DNA of 64,000 nucleotides, from positions 5,857 through 69,856 of the IMG/VR virus record IMGVR_UViG_3300037524_000636; one strand, written 5' to 3'. The translations under genes were made by a program, and so were the position numbers. Below, one piece after another: positions 51,132 through 63,113 of the stretch; positions within the stretch are counted from its first letter, which is position 1, and each line of letters begins with the position of its first letter. The stretch is from a virus. Taxonomy: Duplodnaviria; Caudoviricetes. The notes below the pieces were generated by a model, which did no database searches, was not told where the DNA came from, and was given only the letters and a program-made list of their open reading frames with translations.

Positions 51132-51841
51132 ACGTCAGCAACAATCTGATCCGTCTCGTCTACGTTTGCTTCGGCTCGGAGTCATTCGCGCGACTTGCCC
51201 GATGGTCGCTCTCGACTCTCCGGGCGACGAAGACAAGGTTGCCCGTCTGGGTCTTGACCAATCGCACTATGGCGCACGACTTCTCGGAGTTCGACCACGT
51301 CGTGCGGGTCGATCCCGATCCCGCGCTCGTGCGCGTGGGCCATCGCGCGGCCCACCTCGACTACAAGGGTGCGCTCATTGTCGCGCTCCTTGAGCGAGAG
51401 TGGTTGCCGATCGTTACGGTCGACGTTGACAGCGAGTTCCTCCGGGACCCATCGCCTGAGTTGGAGTCGATCGTCGAGCCGTTCGCAATGTGCCCGGCTC
51501 CCGATGATCCGATCATTGAGCATGCGCAAGGGAGCTGCATCGAGCGTCAGAGTGGCCTCATGGCCTTCCCGATCGCGCGCGATCACGAGAGCATCGCCCG
51601 GCTTTACCGAAGAGCGTTCGACGAGCTTCGCCTGCACACGAGCGAAGGCTGGCGAAGCGATGCCTTGCTTGAAGAGCGCGCTTGGTCGCTCGTGCACGCC
51701 AGGCTCGCGCCGCAAGTCACACTCTTGCCCAGGACGTTGAACTGGTCGCGCCTGTGGGGCATGCCTCCGCACGATGTTGCGCTCGTGCATCATCATGGGA
51801 ATGCGAAGTTCATCCTGCCGAACTTGGAGGGCTTGCGATGA
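51128..51841 (+). CDS. GT-A fold nucleotide-diphospho-sugar transferase (GT8-like)
   Basis: VWVLTN, DXD (VDVDSEF..DP), QSGLM.F, LLP..LNW, LVHHHG..K. Confidence 0.6.
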   Translation: MNVSNNLIRLVYVCFGSESFARLARWSLSTLRATKTRLPVWVLTNRTMAHDFSEFDHVVRVDPDPALVRVGHRAAHLDYKGALIVALLEREWLPIVTVDVDSEFLRDPSPELESIVEPFAMCPAPDDPIIEHAQGSCIERQSGLMAFPIARDHESIARLYRRAFDELRLHTSEGWRSDALLEERAWSLVHARLAPQVTLLPRTLNWSRLWGMPPHDVALVHHHGNAKFILPNLEGLR

Positions 51842-53406
51842 CTCGCACCTACACGGAGCAAGCGTCGAGACGCGCCTGGAGTGATGCCCTCACGACCGAC
51901 CGGGGGCGCAAGGACGCACCTGCCCTGGACGAGGACGATCTTGTCGCGTCGACGTGCCGAGACTCGCTCGAGGACTTCGTCCGGGAGTTCTGGGACGAGG
52001 TCGTGCCGCAGCCCCTGGTCTGGAATTGGCACATGACGTGCATTTGCGAGGCATTGCAGCGCGTCGCCGAGCGCGTCTTCGCTGGCAAGCCGAAGCTGTA
52101 TGACCTGATCGTCAACGTCCCGCCAGGCACGAGCAAGAGCACGATTTGCAGCGTCATGTTTCCGGCCTGGACGTGGACCCGGATGCAAAGCGCGATCACG
52201 ATAGGCGTCAGCTACACCGAGCGACTCGCGCTCAATCTCGCGCGCAAGCAGCGCGAGTTGATCCGAAGCGACAAGTATCAGCGCGTCTTCGGGCTCGGCA
52301 AGCTCAAGGTCGACCAGGACCTGAAGGGTCACTACGAGAACGAGCAGGGAGGCGCGCGCATCTCGTTTGGCACCGGGGGCACGACCGGCTACCACGCCCA
52401 CTTCCTCATCGTCGACGATCCGCTCAATCCGAACGAGGCGGCAAGCGAGACTGAGCTTCGCTCCTGCAACGACTGGATGGACTCGACCTTGTTCACTCGC
52501 AAGGTCGACAAGGAGGTCTCGGCGACGATCCTGATCATGCAGCGCTTGCACCAGGCGGATCCGACGCAGCACATGCTGGACCGGGCGAACGACGACAACC
52601 CGATCAAGCACATCAGGCTGCCAGGCGAGCTGGTCGCAGGCATCGAGCCCGTTCCGGCGTCGTTGCGCGAGCACTACGTCGACGGCCTGCTCGACGTGCA
52701 TCGGTTGAAGCGACGACAGCTCGCCGAGCTCCGGATCAAGCTGGGCGACTACGGTTACGCCTCGCAAATCCTCCAGGTTCCTGTGCCCCCGGAGGGAGGC
52801 ACGTTCATCGTCGAGCGGTTTCGCATCGCGCATCCCACGGTGACGATCGTTCGGCAAGCCCGGTTTTGGGACAAGGCGGCGACGCCTGGGAAGGGCGACT
52901 GGTGCGCGGGAGTCCTGGTGGGTCGCGACATCAACAACGCCTGGTGGGTGCTCGATGTGCGGCGTGGCCGGTGGGACACGCACACGCGAGAGCAGGTCAT
53001 CCGGGACACGGCAGAGCGCGACGGGGCGGCGACGTTGATCGGGATCGAGCAGGAGCCCGGGAGCGGGGGCGTCGACTCGGCCTGGATGACGATTTCTAAC
53101 CTGGACGGATTCAACGTGCGGGCCTTTCGCTCGACTGGCTCGAAGGTCGAGCGCGCGACGCCAGTCTCCGTGCAAGTCAACGCGCGCAACTTTCTCATTG
53201 CCGCCCAGGCGTCGTGGCTCTCCGACTTCATCTCCGAGCTGCATCACTTCCCATTCGGCCTGCACGATGATCAAGTCGACGCTCTCGCCGGAGCGTTCAA
53301 CATGCTGGCAGGGGTGGGTCCGCGCAAGCGAGCAGGCGCGCTCATGCGCAGGCGAGTCGTGCGTCCGCCTTCGCCCGACGATCGAGCGACGACAATACAG
53401 GCATGA
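51838..53406 (+). CDS. terL: Terminase large subunit
   Basis: WNWH, Walker A NVPPGTSKS, Walker B LIVDDP, nuclease WDKA..D..G, G.KV.RA, HDDQVDA. Confidence 0.93.
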   Translation: MTRTYTEQASRRAWSDALTTDRGRKDAPALDEDDLVASTCRDSLEDFVREFWDEVVPQPLVWNWHMTCICEALQRVAERVFAGKPKLYDLIVNVPPGTSKSTICSVMFPAWTWTRMQSAITIGVSYTERLALNLARKQRELIRSDKYQRVFGLGKLKVDQDLKGHYENEQGGARISFGTGGTTGYHAHFLIVDDPLNPNEAASETELRSCNDWMDSTLFTRKVDKEVSATILIMQRLHQADPTQHMLDRANDDNPIKHIRLPGELVAGIEPVPASLREHYVDGLLDVHRLKRRQLAELRIKLGDYGYASQILQVPVPPEGGTFIVERFRIAHPTVTIVRQARFWDKAATPGKGDWCAGVLVGRDINNAWWVLDVRRGRWDTHTREQVIRDTAERDGAATLIGIEQEPGSGGVDSAWMTISNLDGFNVRAFRSTGSKVERATPVSVQVNARNFLIAAQASWLSDFISELHHFPFGLHDDQVDALAGAFNMLAGVGPRKRAGALMRRRVVRPPSPDDRATTIQA

Positions 53407-54563
53407 GTTGCATGCACGACGACGAGGCTGCCCGCAGGCTGGCCAGGCCTGTGCGCCAAAGCGCGCCTGACGCGCTCTTCGAGATCCCACCGGACTGGCG
53501 CGAGCACTGGTGGCAGATGCCCAGCTTCCGGATGCGCGACGCGACCGCGTTGCATCAGGTCGTCGTCAACTTCATGACCCGCGAGGACATCGAGTGTTTC
53601 TCGCAGCTCACTGGTCTTCCAGTCGCGGAGACCTCGTCGTCGACCTGGTTCCCACACCAATTGCGCCTGAATGGCAGCTACGAATACGACGGCGGCCCAG
53701 TGCCCAACAAGTATCCGATCTGTCTTCCGTCGAAGGGGCGCGCGGACTGCCAACGCACGGCGCGCGTCCTTGATCGCATGGGCCTGCCATATCGCTTCTT
53801 CGTCGAGAAAACCGAGTTCCGGGAATACGTCAGGCACCTGGGGCGCGAGCGCGTCGTCCGGATGCCGTTTCACGATCTGGGCAAGGGTTCCATCCCTGCG
53901 CGCAACTACATTTGGGACTGGGCGCGCGATCACGGGCATCGGAGGCATTGGGTCGTCGATGACAATATCATCGCCTTTGCGCGCTGCAACGACAATCGGC
54001 GCCTGTGCGTGCGCGGGGGCGGGTTCTTCCGGGCGATGGAGGACTTTGTCGATCGGTATGAGAACATTGCCCTGGCCGGGCCGCACGAGCGCGGTTTCAT
54101 GCCAGATCGCAACGGGCGCGCGTCGCCCTACCTCCTGAACACCCGGGTCTACTCCTGTATCCTGATCGACACTACACTGCCAGATCGGTGGCGGGGTCGC
54201 TACAACGAGGACACGGACCTGTCGCTCCGCCTGCTCAAGCAGGGCTGGTGCACGCTCGTCTTCCGCGCCCTGCTCATGCGCAAGTGGTCCACCGTGGGTG
54301 TCGTGGGGGCGAAGGCACTCAGGGGCGGCAACACTGACCATGTCTACAACACCGGCGACCACCGGCGCGAGTTCGCCGAGAGCATCGCGCGCCAGCACCC
54401 GGACGTCGCTCGCGTCGTGTGGCGCTTCAACCGGTGGCATCATCTCGTCGACTACTCGCTTTTTCGGCACAACAAGCTGCGACTCAAGCCCGGTGTGGTT
54501 CCCGTTCCGGGCGACAACGAATACGGGATGAAGCTCGTCCGGACGAAGAAGCTGGCAAAATAG
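53403..54563 (+). CDS. TAGT/GREB1-like glycosyltransferase, copy 2, fused to its small partner domain
   Basis: N-terminus matches 38733-39053 and the rest matches 39040-39909 (KYPICLPSKGR, ARNYIWDWA, HWVVDDN, WRGRYNEDTD). Confidence 0.78.
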   Translation: MSCMHDDEAARRLARPVRQSAPDALFEIPPDWREHWWQMPSFRMRDATALHQVVVNFMTREDIECFSQLTGLPVAETSSSTWFPHQLRLNGSYEYDGGPVPNKYPICLPSKGRADCQRTARVLDRMGLPYRFFVEKTEFREYVRHLGRERVVRMPFHDLGKGSIPARNYIWDWARDHGHRRHWVVDDNIIAFARCNDNRRLCVRGGGFFRAMEDFVDRYENIALAGPHERGFMPDRNGRASPYLLNTRVYSCILIDTTLPDRWRGRYNEDTDLSLRLLKQGWCTLVFRALLMRKWSTVGVVGAKALRGGNTDHVYNTGDHRREFAESIARQHPDVARVVWRFNRWHHLVDYSLFRHNKLRLKPGVVPVPGDNEYGMKLVRTKKLAK

Positions 54564-55875: not shown

Positions 55876-55904
55876 TTGACAAGCGCGACACGATCGCGTA
55901 GGCG
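55876..55904 (+). promoter_or_regulatory. Promoter TTGACA-N17-TAGGCG upstream of portal
   Basis: Consensus -35 with 17-nt spacer. Confidence 0.55.
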
Positions 55905-55907
55905 ACC

Positions 55908-55944
55908 AGGGCGATGGGCATGGGCTCATCGCCCTTCTTCTTTT
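55908..55944 (+). terminator. Terminator/attenuator hairpin before portal
   Basis: agggcgatg/catcgccct stem plus ttcttctttt. Confidence 0.7.
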
Positions 55945-55965
55945 GTATCATCCGATCAAATACAC

Positions 55966-57537
55966 ATGACTGCCAATCAAGCCTTCGCCCGCACCCTTGT
56001 GCGCAATATTCTGATGTCCCGGGGTGCGCTCGCGTCGCACCTCATCGATCCGAAGAGAAACATCGACGCCGAGTGCGGCTACCCGAGCGAGCCAACCTTG
56101 CAGGACTATGACGCGCTTTACTCTCGCGAGGGCATCGCAACTCGCGTCGTGCATGTGCTCCCGGACGAAAGCTGGTCAATGGACCCCGAGATTGTCGAGG
56201 GCGAGCAGTCGAAGGAGACGAAGTTCGAGACCGAGCTCGCCAAACTGATCGAGGAGCACAACCTGTTCAGCGTGCTTTGTCGCGCGGATGGGTTGAGCGG
56301 GATTGGATCGTTTGGCGTCATCGTCTTGGGTATCGACGACGGCAATACACTGGACCAGCCAGTTGACGGCGTGACTGCTGACTCGGACATTCATCCCGTC
56401 AAGACCAAGAGCAAGTTCAAGCTGCTTTATGTTCGCCCGCTCGACGAGAGCGCAGTGTCGATCAAGGAGCGCGATCGCGACCCGCGCTCGCCTCGCTTCA
56501 TGCGCCCGTCGATGTATGCAATCCGCTTTGACACGGCGAGCCAGGCGGTCGCTGGGGGCACGAGTGTTGCGACGATCACACCGTCGACAGAAACGCTCGT
56601 GCATTGGTCGCGCGTCATTCACCTTGCCGACAACCGACGCAATGACGACACATTTGGCACGCCGCGCATGCGTCCAGTATTCAATCGGCTGTATGATCTT
56701 CGTAAGCTCATGAGCGGCGCGACGGAGATGTTCTGGAAGGGAGGGTTTCCTGGAATCGGGATCGAAGCGAACTCGGGTGGCGCGAACATCGCGATGGACC
56801 TGGACGTCGAATCGATCTCGGAGGAGCTGGAGAAATACTTCAACGGCTTGCAGCGCTCGATCGCCGTCGAGAATGCCGCGATCAAGTCTCTGGCGCCACA
56901 GGTCGCTGACCCGCTCCCGCACTTCGAGATGAATATCAAGGCGATCTGCATCGCGTTGCGCGTTCCCTACCGGATCTTCATGGGCACGGAGGAAGCGCAG
57001 CTCGCAGGATCGCAGGACATGCGGGTATTCAATCGACGACTACAAACCCGGCAACAGAAGTATCTCACGCCGTACATCGTTCGCCCGCTCGTCAATCGGC
57101 TGATCACCTATGGGACAATTTCGTTCGTCGATGCGTTCGACGTGAACTGGAAGGACCTCAACACCCTGGGCGACATCGAGAAGGCGGACGTCACGGTGAA
57201 GCGCACGGATGCCCTGGCGAAGTATCTCTCTGGAGGCGTCGACACGCTTGTCCCGCCGCGCGAGTACATGATCCAGTTCCTCGACATGCCTGCCGACGAG
57301 GTCGACGCGATCGAGAAGGCTGCAGAGAAGTATACGGCAGAGCTCGAGGAGAAGGCCGAAGAAGAGGCCGAGCTCATGCGCGAAGACCTGGCGGAGCAGG
57401 ACGTCGACGGCAACGACCAAATCGAGCTGGCGGCGCCAAACGACAAGATGAAGCAAGCGAACGGGACCCAAAAGCTGCCAGCCACGGGCCGGGGCGTCCA
57501 GGCCCAAGTCAAGACACGCACCACCACGAGGAATTGA
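55966..57537 (+). CDS. Portal protein (DUF1073 type)
   Basis: Y.R.GIA.RVV..PDE.W, H.SR.IH, G..R...VFN.L.DL.K..G..E.FW, RVPYRI.MG.E.QLA. Confidence 0.88.
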   Translation: MTANQAFARTLVRNILMSRGALASHLIDPKRNIDAECGYPSEPTLQDYDALYSREGIATRVVHVLPDESWSMDPEIVEGEQSKETKFETELAKLIEEHNLFSVLCRADGLSGIGSFGVIVLGIDDGNTLDQPVDGVTADSDIHPVKTKSKFKLLYVRPLDESAVSIKERDRDPRSPRFMRPSMYAIRFDTASQAVAGGTSVATITPSTETLVHWSRVIHLADNRRNDDTFGTPRMRPVFNRLYDLRKLMSGATEMFWKGGFPGIGIEANSGGANIAMDLDVESISEELEKYFNGLQRSIAVENAAIKSLAPQVADPLPHFEMNIKAICIALRVPYRIFMGTEEAQLAGSQDMRVFNRRLQTRQQKYLTPYIVRPLVNRLITYGTISFVDAFDVNWKDLNTLGDIEKADVTVKRTDALAKYLSGGVDTLVPPREYMIQFLDMPADEVDAIEKAAEKYTAELEEKAEEEAELMREDLAEQDVDGNDQIELAAPNDKMKQANGTQKLPATGRGVQAQVKTRTTTRN

Positions 57538-57632: not shown

Positions 57633-60215
57633 ATGAGCGCGCCAGCACTTGCCCGTTACCGCGCGATCAGGAACGGCTGGCGTCCAGCTCCGTTTGTCAC
57701 GTCGAACGCACGGGTGGTGCGTGCTGGTCGCGCGCAACGCATCGACCCCACGAAGCTGGGGGGCGTCCGTCGCAGGTATCTTGCAGACATCAATCGGCAA
57801 TTCGCAGAGCTGTGGAAGCGCATCCGGAAAGAGTTCGTCGACGATGACATCTTTGGGCTGGACCCGGCGCGCAGGCAAACTGGTCTTGGTGGTGTGCACA
57901 ACGCGGACGGGATCGTGCGCAATCTCTACCAATACCTGACCGACAAGGACAAGGTTGTTGCCTTCAAGCAATGGCTTGATCAGCAATTCCAGGCGGGCGT
58001 GATCTCGAATCCAGTGGGGGCGACGCACATCGAGAGCGCATACCGCAAGGCAGTCGTTGATGCCTACGCCCGCAAGTTTCCTGAGGTAGTTGCTGAGTCA
58101 CTACCATTTTACCGTGGTTCGCGCGAGGAGTTTCTTCGCAGCGCGTTCACTGGTGGCGTTGCCCGACAGAAGATCGAGTTGCTGGCAACGCGCGTTTTTG
58201 AGGAGATGAAGGGACTGACCGAGCAAATGAAGACTGGGATGAACCGGGTCCTGGCGGATGGGATGCTCAGGGGTGCTGGTCCGATGGAGATTGCGCGCGA
58301 GTTGAAGAACGTCATGGGGATTGGCACACGCCGCGCGCGCACGATCGCCCGCACCGAGCTCACACGCGCGCATGCTGAAGGAACGCTCGACAGCTACAAG
58401 GAACTTGGAATCGAGGACGTTGGTGTGCTTGCCGAGTGGAGCACGGCAGGCGATGACCAGGTATGCATTGAGTGCATACAAATGGAGGGCAAGACGTTCA
58501 CAGTGGACGAGGCTCGTGGCATGATCCCAGTGCATCCAAACTGTCGGTGCGCCTGGATTCCATCTGAGGGCGCGCCCATGGGCATGCCGACGCCAGAGAA
58601 GAAGACGACGCTGGAGCCCATGGTGGGACTTGATACGTCGATGACGCTCTCCGATGTCGTTGACGCGAAAGTTGACAGCGCGGTGCAGTTGGGAGGCTCG
58701 ACTGGCGCGCGCTTGCTCAACGTCACGGATAGCCAAGGCGCGACGACGCGCTGGGTCGCGAAGAACTACAGTGGGCGCGTCGAGAACGTCCTGAACGAGT
58801 TCCTGACGAATCGCTACTACCTCGAGTTCGGGAGTGGTAATGTCGTCCCGGATACGCGGCTGGCGATGTTCGAGGGCAAGGCGACGTTGCTGACCAGGTT
58901 CAACCCGAACCTGAAGTTCCTCAAGGACATGATGCCAGCTGAGGCGAAGGCGTTCAAGCTTGCTGCACGCAAGGATTTTGTCACTGACGCCTGGCTCGCG
59001 AACTGGGACGTCGTTGGTCTCTCGCAAGACAACATCGCCTGGGACACAGTTGCAAAGAAGGTCGTCCGAATCGACAATGGTGGCGCGCTTCGCTTTCGCG
59101 CGCAAGGCACGCCAAAGGCAAATCTCTTTGGCTACGATGTAAACGAGATCAAGACCCTGCTCGACCCAACGATCAACCCAGCCTCGTCGGATTTCTTTGG
59201 CAAGATTGCGCCGAACACGATGTGGTCCGAGTTGACGGACTTCATCAAGCGACAGCAGGGCAAGACCGACATCTGGACCCGTGTCCAGACAATCGCTACA
59301 CAGGCGACAGACGCGCTTGCAAAGCGTGGGTTGGTCACGTCGAACACAGCCAGTTCGCTCGTCACCGAATATGCTAAGACCCTGACTCTTCGCTTCGAGA
59401 GCATCAAGAAGCAGCGCACGTTGCTGGGTGCAGCGAACACCGCCGCAGCGAAGGCGAAGAAGTTCTCGGCAGCAATTCCAGCGACGCGATCAGTTGGAGC
59501 TGGCACTCGACCCAAGGTCACCTCGATCGCCGAACATCAAGAATGGGAGAACAAAGTGGGTTGGAAACTGACATACGATGAGAAACAGGCCGTGCGCGAG
59601 TTCACAGGCTACAACTACACTGACATCAATAACGACTTGATTCAGGCGCACCGCGCTGTCCGTGCTGGAACCTACGCAACGGTTGACGATGCACTGCAGG
59701 GCCGCGCCTGGAGAAAGGTCATTCACAACCTTGATCGAGCGTTCGAGAAGTCGCCTGAATATGACGCGCCTGTCATCCGGGGCGTTTACTTCGGTGGGCC
59801 GAAGGGTGACGCGATGCTCAACCAATGGAAAACTGGCGCGTGGGCGAACATGGACATGGCTGGGTTCTCGTCGGCTTCACCGCTCAAGTCTTTTCGGGTC
59901 AACACGCAACTCTACTTCCCACGCGGGCACGGTGGGATGTATGTCGACGCGATCAGCGAGAACGCCGGCGAGTATGAGGTCTTGATTCCGCGCGGGACGA
60001 ACTGGCGGGTCACCCACTTTCATGTTGATGCGAATGGGACGAATCACATTGCCCTGGAGCCCGCACAACCTGGCGCGCTCTTGTCGCAAGTCACGCCCAC
60101 GGATCCTGGTATTGCCTTCTTCAAGACACTCCAAAGAGAGGCGAAGAATCAAGCCTTGAGGACACACAACGGTAATTCGGCGATGACTGCATACGGGACA
60201 ATCATTCAAATCTAG
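57633..60215 (+). CDS. MuF/SPP1 gp7 minor head protein with kinase-like and ADP-ribosyltransferase extensions
   Basis: MuF RARTIARTE..RAH, D.VC..C, HPNCRC; kinase-like DAWLANWD..DN..RIDNGG; ART R716, S746-S749, E780-x-E782. Confidence 0.85.
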   Translation: MSAPALARYRAIRNGWRPAPFVTSNARVVRAGRAQRIDPTKLGGVRRRYLADINRQFAELWKRIRKEFVDDDIFGLDPARRQTGLGGVHNADGIVRNLYQYLTDKDKVVAFKQWLDQQFQAGVISNPVGATHIESAYRKAVVDAYARKFPEVVAESLPFYRGSREEFLRSAFTGGVARQKIELLATRVFEEMKGLTEQMKTGMNRVLADGMLRGAGPMEIARELKNVMGIGTRRARTIARTELTRAHAEGTLDSYKELGIEDVGVLAEWSTAGDDQVCIECIQMEGKTFTVDEARGMIPVHPNCRCAWIPSEGAPMGMPTPEKKTTLEPMVGLDTSMTLSDVVDAKVDSAVQLGGSTGARLLNVTDSQGATTRWVAKNYSGRVENVLNEFLTNRYYLEFGSGNVVPDTRLAMFEGKATLLTRFNPNLKFLKDMMPAEAKAFKLAARKDFVTDAWLANWDVVGLSQDNIAWDTVAKKVVRIDNGGALRFRAQGTPKANLFGYDVNEIKTLLDPTINPASSDFFGKIAPNTMWSELTDFIKRQQGKTDIWTRVQTIATQATDALAKRGLVTSNTASSLVTEYAKTLTLRFESIKKQRTLLGAANTAAAKAKKFSAAIPATRSVGAGTRPKVTSIAEHQEWENKVGWKLTYDEKQAVREFTGYNYTDINNDLIQAHRAVRAGTYATVDDALQGRAWRKVIHNLDRAFEKSPEYDAPVIRGVYFGGPKGDAMLNQWKTGAWANMDMAGFSSASPLKSFRVNTQLYFPRGHGGMYVDAISENAGEYEVLIPRGTNWRVTHFHVDANGTNHIALEPAQPGALLSQVTPTDPGIAFFKTLQREAKNQALRTHNGNSAMTAYGTIIQI

Positions 60216-60246
60216 GCGCACAACGAGCGTCGACAATAGACACACG

Positions 60247-60585
60247 ATGAAGAAAAAGCAGGATGAGGAGCGACCCTACCAAGGAGCAGGACACGCCGAC
60301 ACGATGTCAGACGTCTTCGACATGCCACCGTGCATGTCGTGCAAGCACCTGTTGCACGTAGGGACGCAGGACTTGACGAGCGGCTGGACCTGCAAGGCCT
60401 GGCCGACCGAGATCCCGTGGTCGATTCTCACGCGCGAGCGCAAGCACGACGTAGTTGTTCCGCACACACAGGAGGGCGACTACGTTTTTGACTCGCACTT
60501 GATCGACTTCCCGGATGGCACAGTCCGAAAGGAAGATTGGGACGGCAAGCTCATCATCGTCGGGCGCGCGAAGAAGAAGGGCTAG
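60247..60585 (+). CDS. Small Cys/His-rich protein, candidate immunity/partner of the MuF toxin
   Basis: C..CKH..CKAWP.EIP..I..R.H..Q.GD..F; immediately downstream of MuF-ART. Confidence 0.55.
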   Translation: MKKKQDEERPYQGAGHADTMSDVFDMPPCMSCKHLLHVGTQDLTSGWTCKAWPTEIPWSILTRERKHDVVVPHTQEGDYVFDSHLIDFPDGTVRKEDWDGKLIIVGRAKKKG

Positions 60586-60884: not shown

Positions 60885-60983
60885 ATACGATTTTGCTTGA
60901 TGTCCGTTCTTTTTTGAACAAATAGCCGAGTCTGAAGTATCAACGAAAGAGCTTCACCGCGCAGCTTCAGGTATCGACGAACG

Positions 60984-61012
60984 AGCCTCACCCTGTGCGG
61001 TGAGGCTTTTTT
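60984..61012 (+). terminator. Rho-independent terminator before the head operon
   Basis: agcctcacc/ggtgaggct stem plus T-run. Confidence 0.75.
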
Positions 61013-61040
61013 GTATTCTCAAATCAAGCATAATCCCAAA

Positions 61041-62591
61041 ATGACGAAAAGGAAGCAGGCAGGTTTCTGGGCGGAGGCCCGAAGTGGCTCTCGGCGCACT
61101 TCAAAAAGTTCACTTGTGAGAAACGACTCAGCGCCGCCTGCCGAAGACCAGGCGACGATTGAGCACCTCACATTCAACCTGAAGACGTCGCTGGTTCGGA
61201 ACGACAAGATGGAAGGTCGCGACTACCTGGTTGTTCCGATGGTGATGATGGTCGAGGGCGTACATGTGGGCTCGAATGGCCCGCTACTCTACCCAGCGGA
61301 CGAGCTGAAGAAGACTCCAGAAGTCTGGAACATGAAGCCGGTGGTCGTCTATCATCCGGAAATCAACGGACAGGGAGTCACCGCATGCGATCCCGACGTT
61401 GCGACCAAGCAAAAGATTGGCGTGATCATGAACACGCGCTGGGACGCGCGCGCGAAGCGACTCAAGGCCGAAGCGTGGCTGGAGGAGCATCGCGTGCGGG
61501 AAGTCGACGATCGCATTGCCAACGCGATCGAGGAGAATCAGGTCCTCGAGTTGTCGACTGGGCTCTTCACTGACAACGAGACCAAGACTGGCGAGCACAA
61601 TGGCGAGGCCTACGTTGCGATCGCGCGCAATTATCGGCCTGATCATCTCGCTGTCCTGCCCGACAGGATTGGTGCATGCTCGGTTGCCGATGGCGCTGGC
61701 TTCATCCGCAATGAGCTGATCGGGCACAACGTGCCGCGCGAGCAGATCGACAAGGTCCGTGCGTTGGTCTTGAATACGGTGGAGACACTGGGCTTGCGCG
61801 AGCTTGTCGTGAATGAGCTGTCACACGGCGCCGTCCGCGACCAGCTGTTTGACGCGCTGATCAAGCGGTTCCCGGGCAAGAAAACGGAGCTCGGCAACGC
61901 TCCCGGTCCGTGGGTGGAGTCCGTCTTTGATGGCTTTGTCATCTTTGAGCGCGAGGGAAAGCTGTATCGGCTTCCCTACACGATCGAGGATGACACCGTG
62001 CTTTTGGCTGACAAGGAACCAACGATGGTCAACCGAGTCGTCGAATATCGAACCGTGGCAGGCGCCGTGATTGGAAACAACCTGACCACCAACAGTCCGA
62101 AACTCAGTAACAACGAAGCAAATACACAAATGAAAGAGAAACTGGTCAATGACCTGATCGCCAACCACGGCTGGGAGGAAACCGACCGCGCGTTCCTGCT
62201 CAGTCTCAACGAGGACGGCTTGTCCAAGCTGTCCAAGTTCAAGAAGGACGTGCCCGTCGCATCCCCGCACGGCGCATCCCCGCCCGTCGCGAACAAGCAG
62301 ATGACTCCCGAGGAGTTCATCGCTCAGGCACCCGAGGGCATGCGCGACATGCTGCAAAGCGGGCTGATCTCGTTCAACGAGCAGCGCGCCAGCCTGATCG
62401 CTTCGATCAAGACGAACGAGCTGAACGAGTTCAGCGACGACGAGCTCGGCGCGAAGAGCCTACGGGAACTGAAAGTCCTGGCGAAGCTCGCGACGAAGCC
62501 AGCCGTGCACAACTACGCCGGACTTGCGCCGGTCGCGGGCGCACCCGCGAAGAGCGTCGAGACCTGCCTTCCCCTTCCGAAGTGGGAGTGA
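61041..62591 (+). CDS. Prohead protease/scaffold (DUF2213-like)
   Basis: VP..EGV..G..YP.EL..WN.KPVVV.HP, ELSTG, PDHLAVLP..GACS.ADG; helical scaffold C-terminus. Confidence 0.85.
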   Translation: MTKRKQAGFWAEARSGSRRTSKSSLVRNDSAPPAEDQATIEHLTFNLKTSLVRNDKMEGRDYLVVPMVMMVEGVHVGSNGPLLYPADELKKTPEVWNMKPVVVYHPEINGQGVTACDPDVATKQKIGVIMNTRWDARAKRLKAEAWLEEHRVREVDDRIANAIEENQVLELSTGLFTDNETKTGEHNGEAYVAIARNYRPDHLAVLPDRIGACSVADGAGFIRNELIGHNVPREQIDKVRALVLNTVETLGLRELVVNELSHGAVRDQLFDALIKRFPGKKTELGNAPGPWVESVFDGFVIFEREGKLYRLPYTIEDDTVLLADKEPTMVNRVVEYRTVAGAVIGNNLTTNSPKLSNNEANTQMKEKLVNDLIANHGWEETDRAFLLSLNEDGLSKLSKFKKDVPVASPHGASPPVANKQMTPEEFIAQAPEGMRDMLQSGLISFNEQRASLIASIKTNELNEFSDDELGAKSLRELKVLAKLATKPAVHNYAGLAPVAGAPAKSVETCLPLPKWE

Positions 62592-62651: not shown

Positions 62652-63113
62652 ATGTCCACCAACACAAAGACGATCGTGGTTCGGGGCAACCTGAACCAAT
62701 ACCACGACGAGTTTCCGGCCGACGCTGCATTGTCGCCGGGGCACGTCCTCCAGAAGAACAGCGATGGTGAGGTCCTCAAGACGACGAGCGCGGAAGGCAA
62801 AGCCTGGAATCGCCTCATCGCGAAGGAGAACGCCCTGCTCGGCGCGACCGAGGATGACGCCTACGCTGCCGCCGACGTCGTTCCCGTTCACGTCTGCCAG
62901 CCCGGAGACATCGTGCGCGCGTTTCTCACGCCTGGTGTCTCCTACGCGATCGGTGACCAGCTCATCCTGAGCGACACTGCTGGCCAGCTCAAGAAACTGG
63001 CGTCCGTGTCATCTGGCGTCACCGTGCGCAAGGTCGTGGGCGAGATCCGCACCGCACTCAACCTGAGCGCGTCCGGAGCCGTCGCGACGAAGGGCGAAGT
63101 CTTCATCTACTGA
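62652..63113 (+). CDS. Head decoration protein
   Basis: Between protease and capsid; A.A.SPG.VL, A.EN.L.G..DAYA pattern. Confidence 0.7.
   Translation: MSTNTKTIVVRGNLNQYHDEFPADAALSPGHVLQKNSDGEVLKTTSAEGKAWNRLIAKENALLGATEDDAYAAADVVPVHVCQPGDIVRAFLTPGVSYAIGDQLILSDTAGQLKKLASVSSGVTVRKVVGEIRTALNLSASGAVATKGEVFIY

Follow-up and report, generated by a model that had tools for sequence, protein, structure and literature searches.

A MuF head protein carrying two enzymatic domains

The 64,000-nucleotide stretch of viral DNA analyzed here (the window) comprises bases 5857 to 69856 of a 69,856-bp IMG/VR viral record (IMGVR_UViG_3300037524_000636) that is rated 91% complete. Its head module, with the portal gene on one side and the prohead protease/scaffold gene on the other, contains a gene for a protein of 860 amino acids (aa) in which a MuF head morphogenesis domain is followed by a kinase-like domain and a mono-ADP-ribosyltransferase (ART) domain; directly 3' of it lies a small open reading frame (ORF) of 112 aa (Table 1). 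A first-pass annotation of this DNA had described the larger gene as one frame with exactly these parts. The frame is indeed uninterrupted, and all three domains could be placed by combining Pfam searches with hidden Markov models (HMMs) of our own, those used for domain architecture being built on reference columns only.

The N-terminal region is recognized by PF04233 (Phage_Mu_F; aa 204 to 308, E = 3.2e-15, 57.3 bits versus a curated cutoff of 29.6), by TIGR01641 (SPP1 gp7; aa 205 to 310, E = 7.7e-20, 71.3 bits versus a cutoff of 39.65), and by phrog_758 (E = 1.5e-33). At the opposite end, PF03496 (ADPrib_exo_Tox) covers aa 641 to 804 (E = 6.1e-15, 55.5 bits versus a curated cutoff of 23.4), and the catalytic set of an R-S-E-type ART is complete, with R716, S746-S747-A-S749, and E780-Y-E782. 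The 513-position MuF-plus-ART profile phrog_595 matches aa 196 to 809; the protein thus resembles MuF-ART fusions of the known kind, apart from some 300 extra residues in its middle. When we compared a profile of the ART family with known enzymes, the best match was to Vis (1e-21), followed by Vip2, Tre1, the iota/CDT/C2 toxins, and C3 (down to 1e-9); Vis, Vip2, and Tre1 among these are arginine-specific enzymes. ARTs of the ExE type (C2/iota/Vis type) act on arginine, and we predict on this account that arginine is the acceptor here too.

Table 1. Features of the head module and of the MuF fusion locus, with positions in the window
Feature	Position	Strand	Remarks
Large terminase	51682-53406		First in order in the head module
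Glucosyltransferase-like gene	53403-54563	+	phrog_842 (beta-glucosyl-HMC alpha-glucosyltransferase family), E = 2e-35; between terminase and portal
Portal gene	55876-57537	+	phrog_146 (portal), E = 1.7e-64; directly 5' of the MuF fusion gene
MuF-kinase-ART ORF (P0001), 860 aa	57633-60215	+	ATG start, no internal stops
MuF/SPP1 gp7 head morphogenesis domain, aa 36-312	57738-58568	+	Presumed capsid anchor; PF04233, TIGR01641, phrog_758
Atypical kinase domain, core aa 350-538, helical C-lobe to ~aa 614	58680-59474	+	Fold matches, invariant residues
R-S-E (ExE) mono-ART domain, aa 641-808	59553-60056	+	PF03496; R716, S746/S747, E780, E782
CGACAATAG motif	60231-60239	+	7 nucleotides 5' of the ATG of the small ORF
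Small partner ORF (P0002), 112 aa	60247-60585	+	Homologs adjoin cargo-bearing MuF and kinase-ART genes
Terminator-like hairpin, 10-pair stem and T run	60983-61008	+	Before the protease/scaffold gene; consensus scan only
Prohead protease/scaffold-like gene	61011-62591	+	phrog_760; head maturation protease PHROGs, E ~1e-6
Decoration protein	62652-63113		Downstream of the protease/scaffold gene
Capsid-like protein	from 63178		Downstream of the decoration protein

The middle domain adopts an atypical kinase fold

The middle domain has no match in Pfam, in NCBIfam, or among PDB sequences, the last of which were searched with both phmmer and a profile of the family. A sequence-level link to kinases of known structure was thus rejected, and the connection described below is one of fold comparison only. 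The family itself is large: an exhaustive HMMER search seeded with aa 335 to 625 recovered 3,883 cluster representatives at an E value of ≤1e-3 (1,963 of them at ≤1e-10) in proteins of 272 to 7,004 residues, and a two-pattern scan of IMG/VR with the family alignment yielded 563 confirmed stretches. Across 33 divergent members, the invariant positions are G355 in the LGGSTG loop, K377, E389, N457-W-D459, D466-N467, D481, G483-G484, R489-A-x-G492, and K495. The motifs from which the first-pass annotation had suspected a HipA- or PI3/PI4-kinase-like domain lie at these positions (LGGSTG, 353 to 358; K377; E389; ANWD, 456 to 459; D466-N467; IDNGG, 480 to 484; and FRAQG, 488 to 492).

An AlphaFold2 model built on the family alignment reached a predicted local distance difference test (pLDDT) score of 91.8 and a predicted template modeling score of 0.88. 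In it, the Gly loop connects strands 1 and 2, K377 ends strand 3, E389 sits in the next helix, D459 and D466-N467 come after a long helix, and D481-N-G-G comes after the next pair of strands, with helices (model residues 182 to 280) forming a C-lobe. The invariant residues thereby occupy the positions that a protein kinase-like fold demands, which supports the kinase reading. The comparison with Foldseek that the first-pass annotation had suggested was run on this domain and retrieved VPS34/PI3K (E = 3e-6), mTOR, ATM/Tel1, and ordinary protein kinases from the PDB at E values of about 1e-5 to 1e-6. An independent fold search with VIA-align, in which each match spans approximately 210 to 234 residues, ranked CtkA of Helicobacter pylori highest (Z = 15.6), followed by CotH (14.8), PI4KIIalpha (14.5), Fam20 (12.9), HipA (12.5), MavQ (11.7), and actin-fragmin kinase (11.4). 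The two HipA structures gave Z values of 12.5 (4pu3, 214 residues aligned) and 10.3 (5k98).

The suspected resemblance to HipA and to the PI3/PI4 kinases is hence borne out at the level of fold and stops short of family membership. The 860-aa protein matches neither HipA_C (PF07804) nor HipA_2 (PF20613) at E values of up to 1, the matches of its relatives to these models stay below threshold (16 to 17 bits versus cutoffs of 27 to 30.5), and no Pfam match to the PI3/PI4-kinase family PF00454 was found, the likeness to VPS34 and PI4KIIalpha being in fold only. Judged from the model and its catalytic motifs, the middle domain is kinase-like, and by curated sequence thresholds it is outside the HipA and PI3/PI4 families.

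Kinase and ART domains form a recurrent cassette

The first-pass annotation had treated the fusion as a one-off; it belongs instead to a large family of proteins with a kinase-ART cassette. We surveyed 135 kinase family representatives that had been found solely via the kinase domain. An R-S-E ART is present in 82 of them and stands directly after the kinase in 81, separated from it by a median of 104 aa that corresponds to the helical C-lobe. Only 34 of the 135 have a MuF domain of the present type, and the representatives without a detectable R-S-E ART include 26 kinase-only and 17 kinase-kinase proteins. The arrangement can be multiplied within a single polypeptide, as in a metagenomic protein of 3,416 aa (P0123) with five kinase-ART units in tandem. 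Among 25 MuF-kinase-ART proteins, the pairwise distances of the kinase and ART domains correlate with r = 0.64 in a Mantel test, while MuF correlates with either at r = 0.30 to 0.32; the test is rough, with saturating p-distances and related sequences, and its support is modest. From these sequence comparisons, we conclude that the kinase followed by the ART is an evolutionary unit, a cassette that is reused in many virion-associated proteins. Its inheritance as a unit suggests that both activities probably serve one process.

Several cultured phages carry the same domains. In gp129 of Yersinia phage fHe-Yen8-01 (2,146 aa), which its depositors annotated as a "phage particle associated protein," the kinase occupies residues 1577 to 1749 and the ART residues 1972 to 2118; gp117 of Pseudomonas phage Dolphis has the same cassette. 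In Gordonia phage Mareelih, the gene right after the portal gene (gp77) encodes the kinase domain alone, and the annotation as an ADP-ribosyltransferase is attached to a distinct gene two places further downstream. The BFVD database further contains the kinase domain in a portal protein fusion and in an "ADP-ribosyltransferase" of Mycobacterium phage Onyinye.

Further architectures were noted. One protein has three kinase domains, with no R-S-E ART detected (P0124), and another, of 7,004 aa, combines two kinase domains with three ART domains (P0174). A 2,140-aa MuF-kinase-ART protein (L018:2036-8455) has a weak match to an intein-splicing domain just after MuF, and a small partner ORF follows its gene.

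A small gene accompanies cargo-bearing MuF proteins

The 112-aa ORF noted in the first-pass annotation has no match in Pfam, PHROG, or NCBIfam. Its structure model is of moderate quality (pLDDT, 72), and no PDB chain reached a Z value of 2 against it. A word-based search with the single sequence found only itself, its homologs being recovered through synteny and profiles. The ORFs directly 3' of two three-domain homologs of the fusion are homologs of it at 46 to 48% identity (E = 1e-17 to 1e-20), the two upstream proteins being only 32 to 34% identical to the 860-aa protein. A profile search gathered 33 members, all unnamed. The nine that were aligned all have C29, C32, H34, C49, and H67 (numbering of the present protein; CxxCxH...C...H), a pattern that makes a zinc site probable.

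Loci were collected from three starting points. Eight IMG/VR loci were found via the small ORF, and a repeat of the pattern scan with a larger alignment returned the same eight contigs. Directly upstream of it stands a kinase-ART gene in six of these (one without MuF), and in the remaining two, a MuF domain fused to an HExxH peptidase-like domain. Starting from the kinase, the small ORF is adjacent at 16 of 80 loci. Starting from MuF alone, again with 80 loci, it follows 4 of the 17 MuF genes that are long and bear cargo, and none of the 63 short ones (Fisher P = 0.0015); the kinase loci differ likewise from the short, cargo-less MuF genes (16/80 versus 0/63; Fisher P = 6e-5). The cargo of the four long MuF genes is peptidase-like or unassigned, the unassigned cases being L116 and L138.

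Three of the loci deserve separate description. At L013:4363-5982 and L113:6980-9277, MuF is joined to a peptidase-like cargo that either has an HExxH motif (HEYGH) or is weakly similar to a peptidase of the anthrax lethal factor type, and the small partner family comes next. At L183:1-2426, the gene for a kinase-less MuF-ART protein precedes two paralogs of the small CxxCxH partner ORF.

The small ORF is thus a conserved partner of cargo-bearing MuF and polyvalent proteins generally, not of one enzymatic domain. The first-pass annotation had offered it as a candidate immunity gene. Homologs occupying the corresponding place on other viral contigs do make it a conserved partner; the case for cognate immunity is less clear, because a protein dedicated to neutralizing a single toxin domain would not be expected to follow HExxH peptidase-like cargo, unassigned cargo, and a kinase-less MuF-ART alike. 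A general accessory for handling or silencing cargo would fit its distribution better, though it may yet be an inhibitor that acts by binding.

Genome context and lifestyle

No tyrosine integrase, serine recombinase, or resolvase was found in the 69.9-kb record, although one could be missing from a genome that is 91% complete. The phage is probably virulent, and the absence of these genes fits a role in host takeover better than a role as a weapon of lysogens. An ADP-ribosylhydrolase (PF03747) or a macro domain was likewise not found anywhere in the record.

The terminase shares about 35% identity with those of Croceibacter, Erythrobacter, and Rhizobium phages. The nearest cultured-virus matches of the MuF part (57633 to 58580) are haloarchaeal tailed viruses, namely Hardycor1 (34% identity), ChaoS9, and HJTV-4; an origin from a haloarchaeal virus, which these matches might have suggested, was rejected because the nearest relatives of the terminase are those bacterial phages. 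The glucosyltransferase-like gene of the phrog_842 type between the terminase and portal genes is a hint of hypermodified DNA.

The element CGACAATAG occurs in six exact copies on the + strand of the window (30982, 34045, 34848, 40888, 44886, and 60231), against 0.2 expected by chance. At the level of a consensus, it may be a phage promoter or regulatory element common to replication genes and the small partner ORF. The strong terminator-like hairpin in front of the protease/scaffold gene may close the transcription unit of the MuF fusion and its partner; the consensus scan for terminators returned six sites in the region versus 3.8 expected.

A proposed two-enzyme payload and the alternatives to it

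We propose that the MuF fusion is a two-enzyme payload of the head that is injected with the DNA and serves host takeover or anti-defense, an explanation we regard as probable, if by no great measure. The N-terminal MuF domain would place the protein in the procapsid beside the portal as a minor head protein. The C-terminal 550 residues would then be cargo, consisting of a catalytically active kinase, atypical and in the structural group of CtkA, PI4KII, and HipA, followed by an arginine-type R-S-ExE mono-ART. Each virion would eject a few copies along with the DNA; these would meet ATP and NAD+ for the first time in the host cytoplasm, where host proteins would be phosphorylated and ADP-ribosylated before the phage expresses its genes. 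The outcome might be comparable to that of T4 Alt, which acts with an ART alone. The 112-aa zinc-type protein would be an accessory of cargo-bearing MuF proteins and may keep the cargo silent or competent for assembly in the producing cell. What the analysis shows is the identity of the three domains, the fold of the kinase, the conservation of the catalytic residues, and the linkage of both the cassette and the partner gene. A packaged dual-enzyme payload is the best supported inference, its basis being the position in the head module, the precedent of other MuF proteins, and the homolog in a cultured phage that is annotated as particle associated.

A number of points weigh against this proposal. 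Packaging, ejection, both enzymatic activities, their substrates, and the role of the partner are all matters that we infer, and the particle-associated label of the fHe-Yen8-01 protein is its depositors' own. From the relatives of the terminase, the host is taken to be some bacterium. In the kinase, the spacing of the catalytic loop is unusual, D459 standing 8 residues before N467 and not 5; a second invariant Asp, D466, is at position -1 relative to N467, as in the "DN" of PI4KII, and either Asp could be the catalytic base. Lipid and sugar kinases (PI4KII, MavQ, and Fam20) are among the nearest folds to the model, which leaves it uncertain whether the substrate is a protein. Finally, at L180:1862-3627 and L182:465-2765, homologs of the small ORF lie directly upstream of genes for large serine recombinases; these contigs end just upstream, no MuF fusion is visible there, and they may represent a prophage end.

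The peculiarities of the kinase bear equally on the possibility that this domain does not phosphorylate proteins and is instead a small-molecule, lipid, or nucleotide kinase, an AMPylating enzyme of the sort found among other atypical kinase folds, or a nucleotide-binding module that regulates or targets the ART. Besides the noncanonical loop spacing and the presence among the top folds of the lipid kinases PI4KIIalpha and MavQ and of the sugar and protein kinases of the Fam20 group, the lipid kinase domain LepB_N is among the language model neighbors (a lead only), and the fixed place just before the ART is compatible with a regulatory role. CtkA, the best single match, is a protein kinase, however, as are HipA, CotH, and actin-fragmin kinase; the invariance of all the phosphotransfer residues in the 33 divergent sequences argues against a pseudoenzyme, and the many family members that lack a detectable R-S-E ART (the kinase-only and kinase-kinase representatives above) speak against a module that exists for the ART. 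We consider this possibility unlikely.

Similarly improbable, in our assessment, is that the fusion is a classical MuF polymorphic toxin, directed against competitors or involved in the lysis-lysogeny decision, with the 112-aa ORF as a specific immunity protein that binds the ART or the kinase as Bsi binds Bxa. The layout speaks for it, since those systems are defined by a MuF protein that ends in a toxin domain and has a small ORF behind it (PMC5576092), and Bxa, likewise a MuF-ART, modifies arginines with ADP-ribose and is neutralized by the neighboring Bsi and BAH (PMC11699363). The small ORF is kept directly 3' across MuF proteins that are just 32 to 34% identical, and it follows even a MuF-less kinase-ART protein (L010). 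Its occurrence after HExxH cargo (L013 and L113), unassigned cargo (L116 and L138), and the kinase-less MuF-ART protein (L183) nevertheless leaves it untied to one toxin domain, and neither an integrase or resolvase nor an ADP-ribosylhydrolase or macro domain was found in the 91%-complete genome. MuF toxins were reported only from temperate phages (Jamet et al. 2017, PMC5576092), whereas the present phage is probably virulent.

A stronger version of the payload proposal holds that the kinase and the ART are one coupled machine and not independent effectors, with the zinc-type partner as a general silencer or chaperone during assembly. Such coupling would explain the joint inheritance of the two domains, their duplication as in the five tandem units, and their codivergence. 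It might take the form of an ATP-dependent autophosphorylation that activates the ART only once the protein has been ejected into a living cell, of the modification of the same target by both enzymes in sequence, or of a phosphorylation of the ADP-ribose mark by the kinase such that host hydrolases could not remove it. We regard this version as speculative and rather doubtful.

Last, it is very unlikely that the cargo acts in the producing cell without being injected, MuF serving head assembly only and the enzymes acting late or being cut off by the prohead protease and left behind: the position of the gene suggests expression with the late head genes, and the prohead protease gene is just downstream, but the cassette also occurs on other virion entry scaffolds (the portal fusion and the protein annotated as particle associated), packaged ARTs have precedents in T4 Alt and the polyvalent proteins (PMC5512222; PMC9503650), and a late-acting enzyme needs no fusion to MuF.

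Comparison with known systems

MuF-ART fusions, MuF toxins with small downstream ORFs, and injected polyvalent proteins have all been described previously (PMC5576092; PMC5512222; PMC9503650; PMC11699363). With the MuF toxins (Jamet et al. 2017, PMC5576092), including the EFV toxin, and with Bxa of a Bacteroides stercoris phage (PMC11699363), the present protein shares an N-terminal MuF domain encoded in the head module, a C-terminal R-S-E ART for which arginine is predicted or shown to be the acceptor, and a small ORF directly 3'. As in the systems of Jamet et al., the toxin domain is common to other toxin families, the ART being related here to Tre1, Vis, and Vip2. It differs in that a full kinase stands between MuF and the ART; a kinase is mentioned in neither report (PMC5576092; PMC11699363). 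Unlike the Bxa-Bsi-BAH system (PMC11699363), it has no ADP-ribosylhydrolase partner, and its partner ORF is not specific to one type of cargo. The described MuF toxins belong to temperate phages, whereas no integrase was found in this record.

The resemblance to the polyvalent proteins of phages and conjugative elements (Iyer et al. 2017, PMC5512222) lies in the presence of at least two effector domains in a single virion- or conjugation-associated polypeptide that is predicted to be injected. MuF often serves as the carrier of such proteins, and their effector classes include both kinases and ARTs. The polyvalent kinase, however, is a truncated Ser/Thr/Tyr kinase, found mainly in the Verrucomicrobia-Chlamydia group and Bacteroidetes, that retains a His...Asp catalytic pair and has lost its C-terminal subdomain (PMC5512222); the present kinase has a loop with N457-W-D459...D466-N467, no conserved His, and a helical C-lobe. 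Similarly, the ARTs of genuine polyvalent proteins are of the H-Y-D type, the R-S-E ARTs of the Alt/VIP2 type not having been found in them (PMC5512222), whereas the ART here is of the R-S-E type, and a fixed kinase-ART cassette was not described there.

T4 Alt provides a parallel for the ART, being an R-S-E ART that is delivered from the head with the DNA, and the ART domains of the two proteins align (hhalign probability, 95%; Alt aa 410 to 592). Alt enters the head by means of its own N-terminal targeting sequence. It differs in lacking both MuF and the kinase, only the ART region being alignable; the idea that the same kinase might be hidden in the N-terminal half of Alt was rejected because hhalign aligned the ART only. 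For the kinase, CtkA, HipA, and PI4KIIalpha share the fold over 214 to 228 aligned residues (Z = 12.5 to 15.6), and D-N and I-D-N-G motifs like those of PI4KII are visible. CtkA is a secreted effector, HipA the toxin of a toxin-antitoxin system, and PI4KIIalpha a eukaryotic lipid kinase; none of them travels as cargo in a virion or has an ART as its partner. In open-access papers and bioRxiv, we found no description of this kinase family, and none of its pairing with an ART, be it on MuF or on another virion protein.

Injected proteins act before phage gene expression and so decide whether an infection survives its first minutes. To our knowledge, few of them are understood, namely, T4 Alt, the N4 RNA polymerase, DarB, and some anti-restriction proteins. 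The present analysis ties to virion carriers a large kinase family for which neither Pfam nor NCBIfam has a model, with an arginine-type ART in fixed order in approximately 60% of its representatives, and it links an uncharacterized family with the CxxCxH...C...H pattern to cargo-bearing MuF proteins. Should the kinase prove active, phages would have their first example of a packaged kinase, and its pairing with the ART would constitute a new type of module for modifying the host early; were the two domains coupled, they would be one inherited machine rather than two effectors. The cassette is carried by cultured Yersinia and Pseudomonas phages, and a Gordonia phage has the kinase with a separate ART gene, which makes these proposals directly testable. 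Set beside the known MuF toxins and polyvalent proteins, the pairing of a kinase with an ART on MuF is an addition to both, and the pair is widespread.

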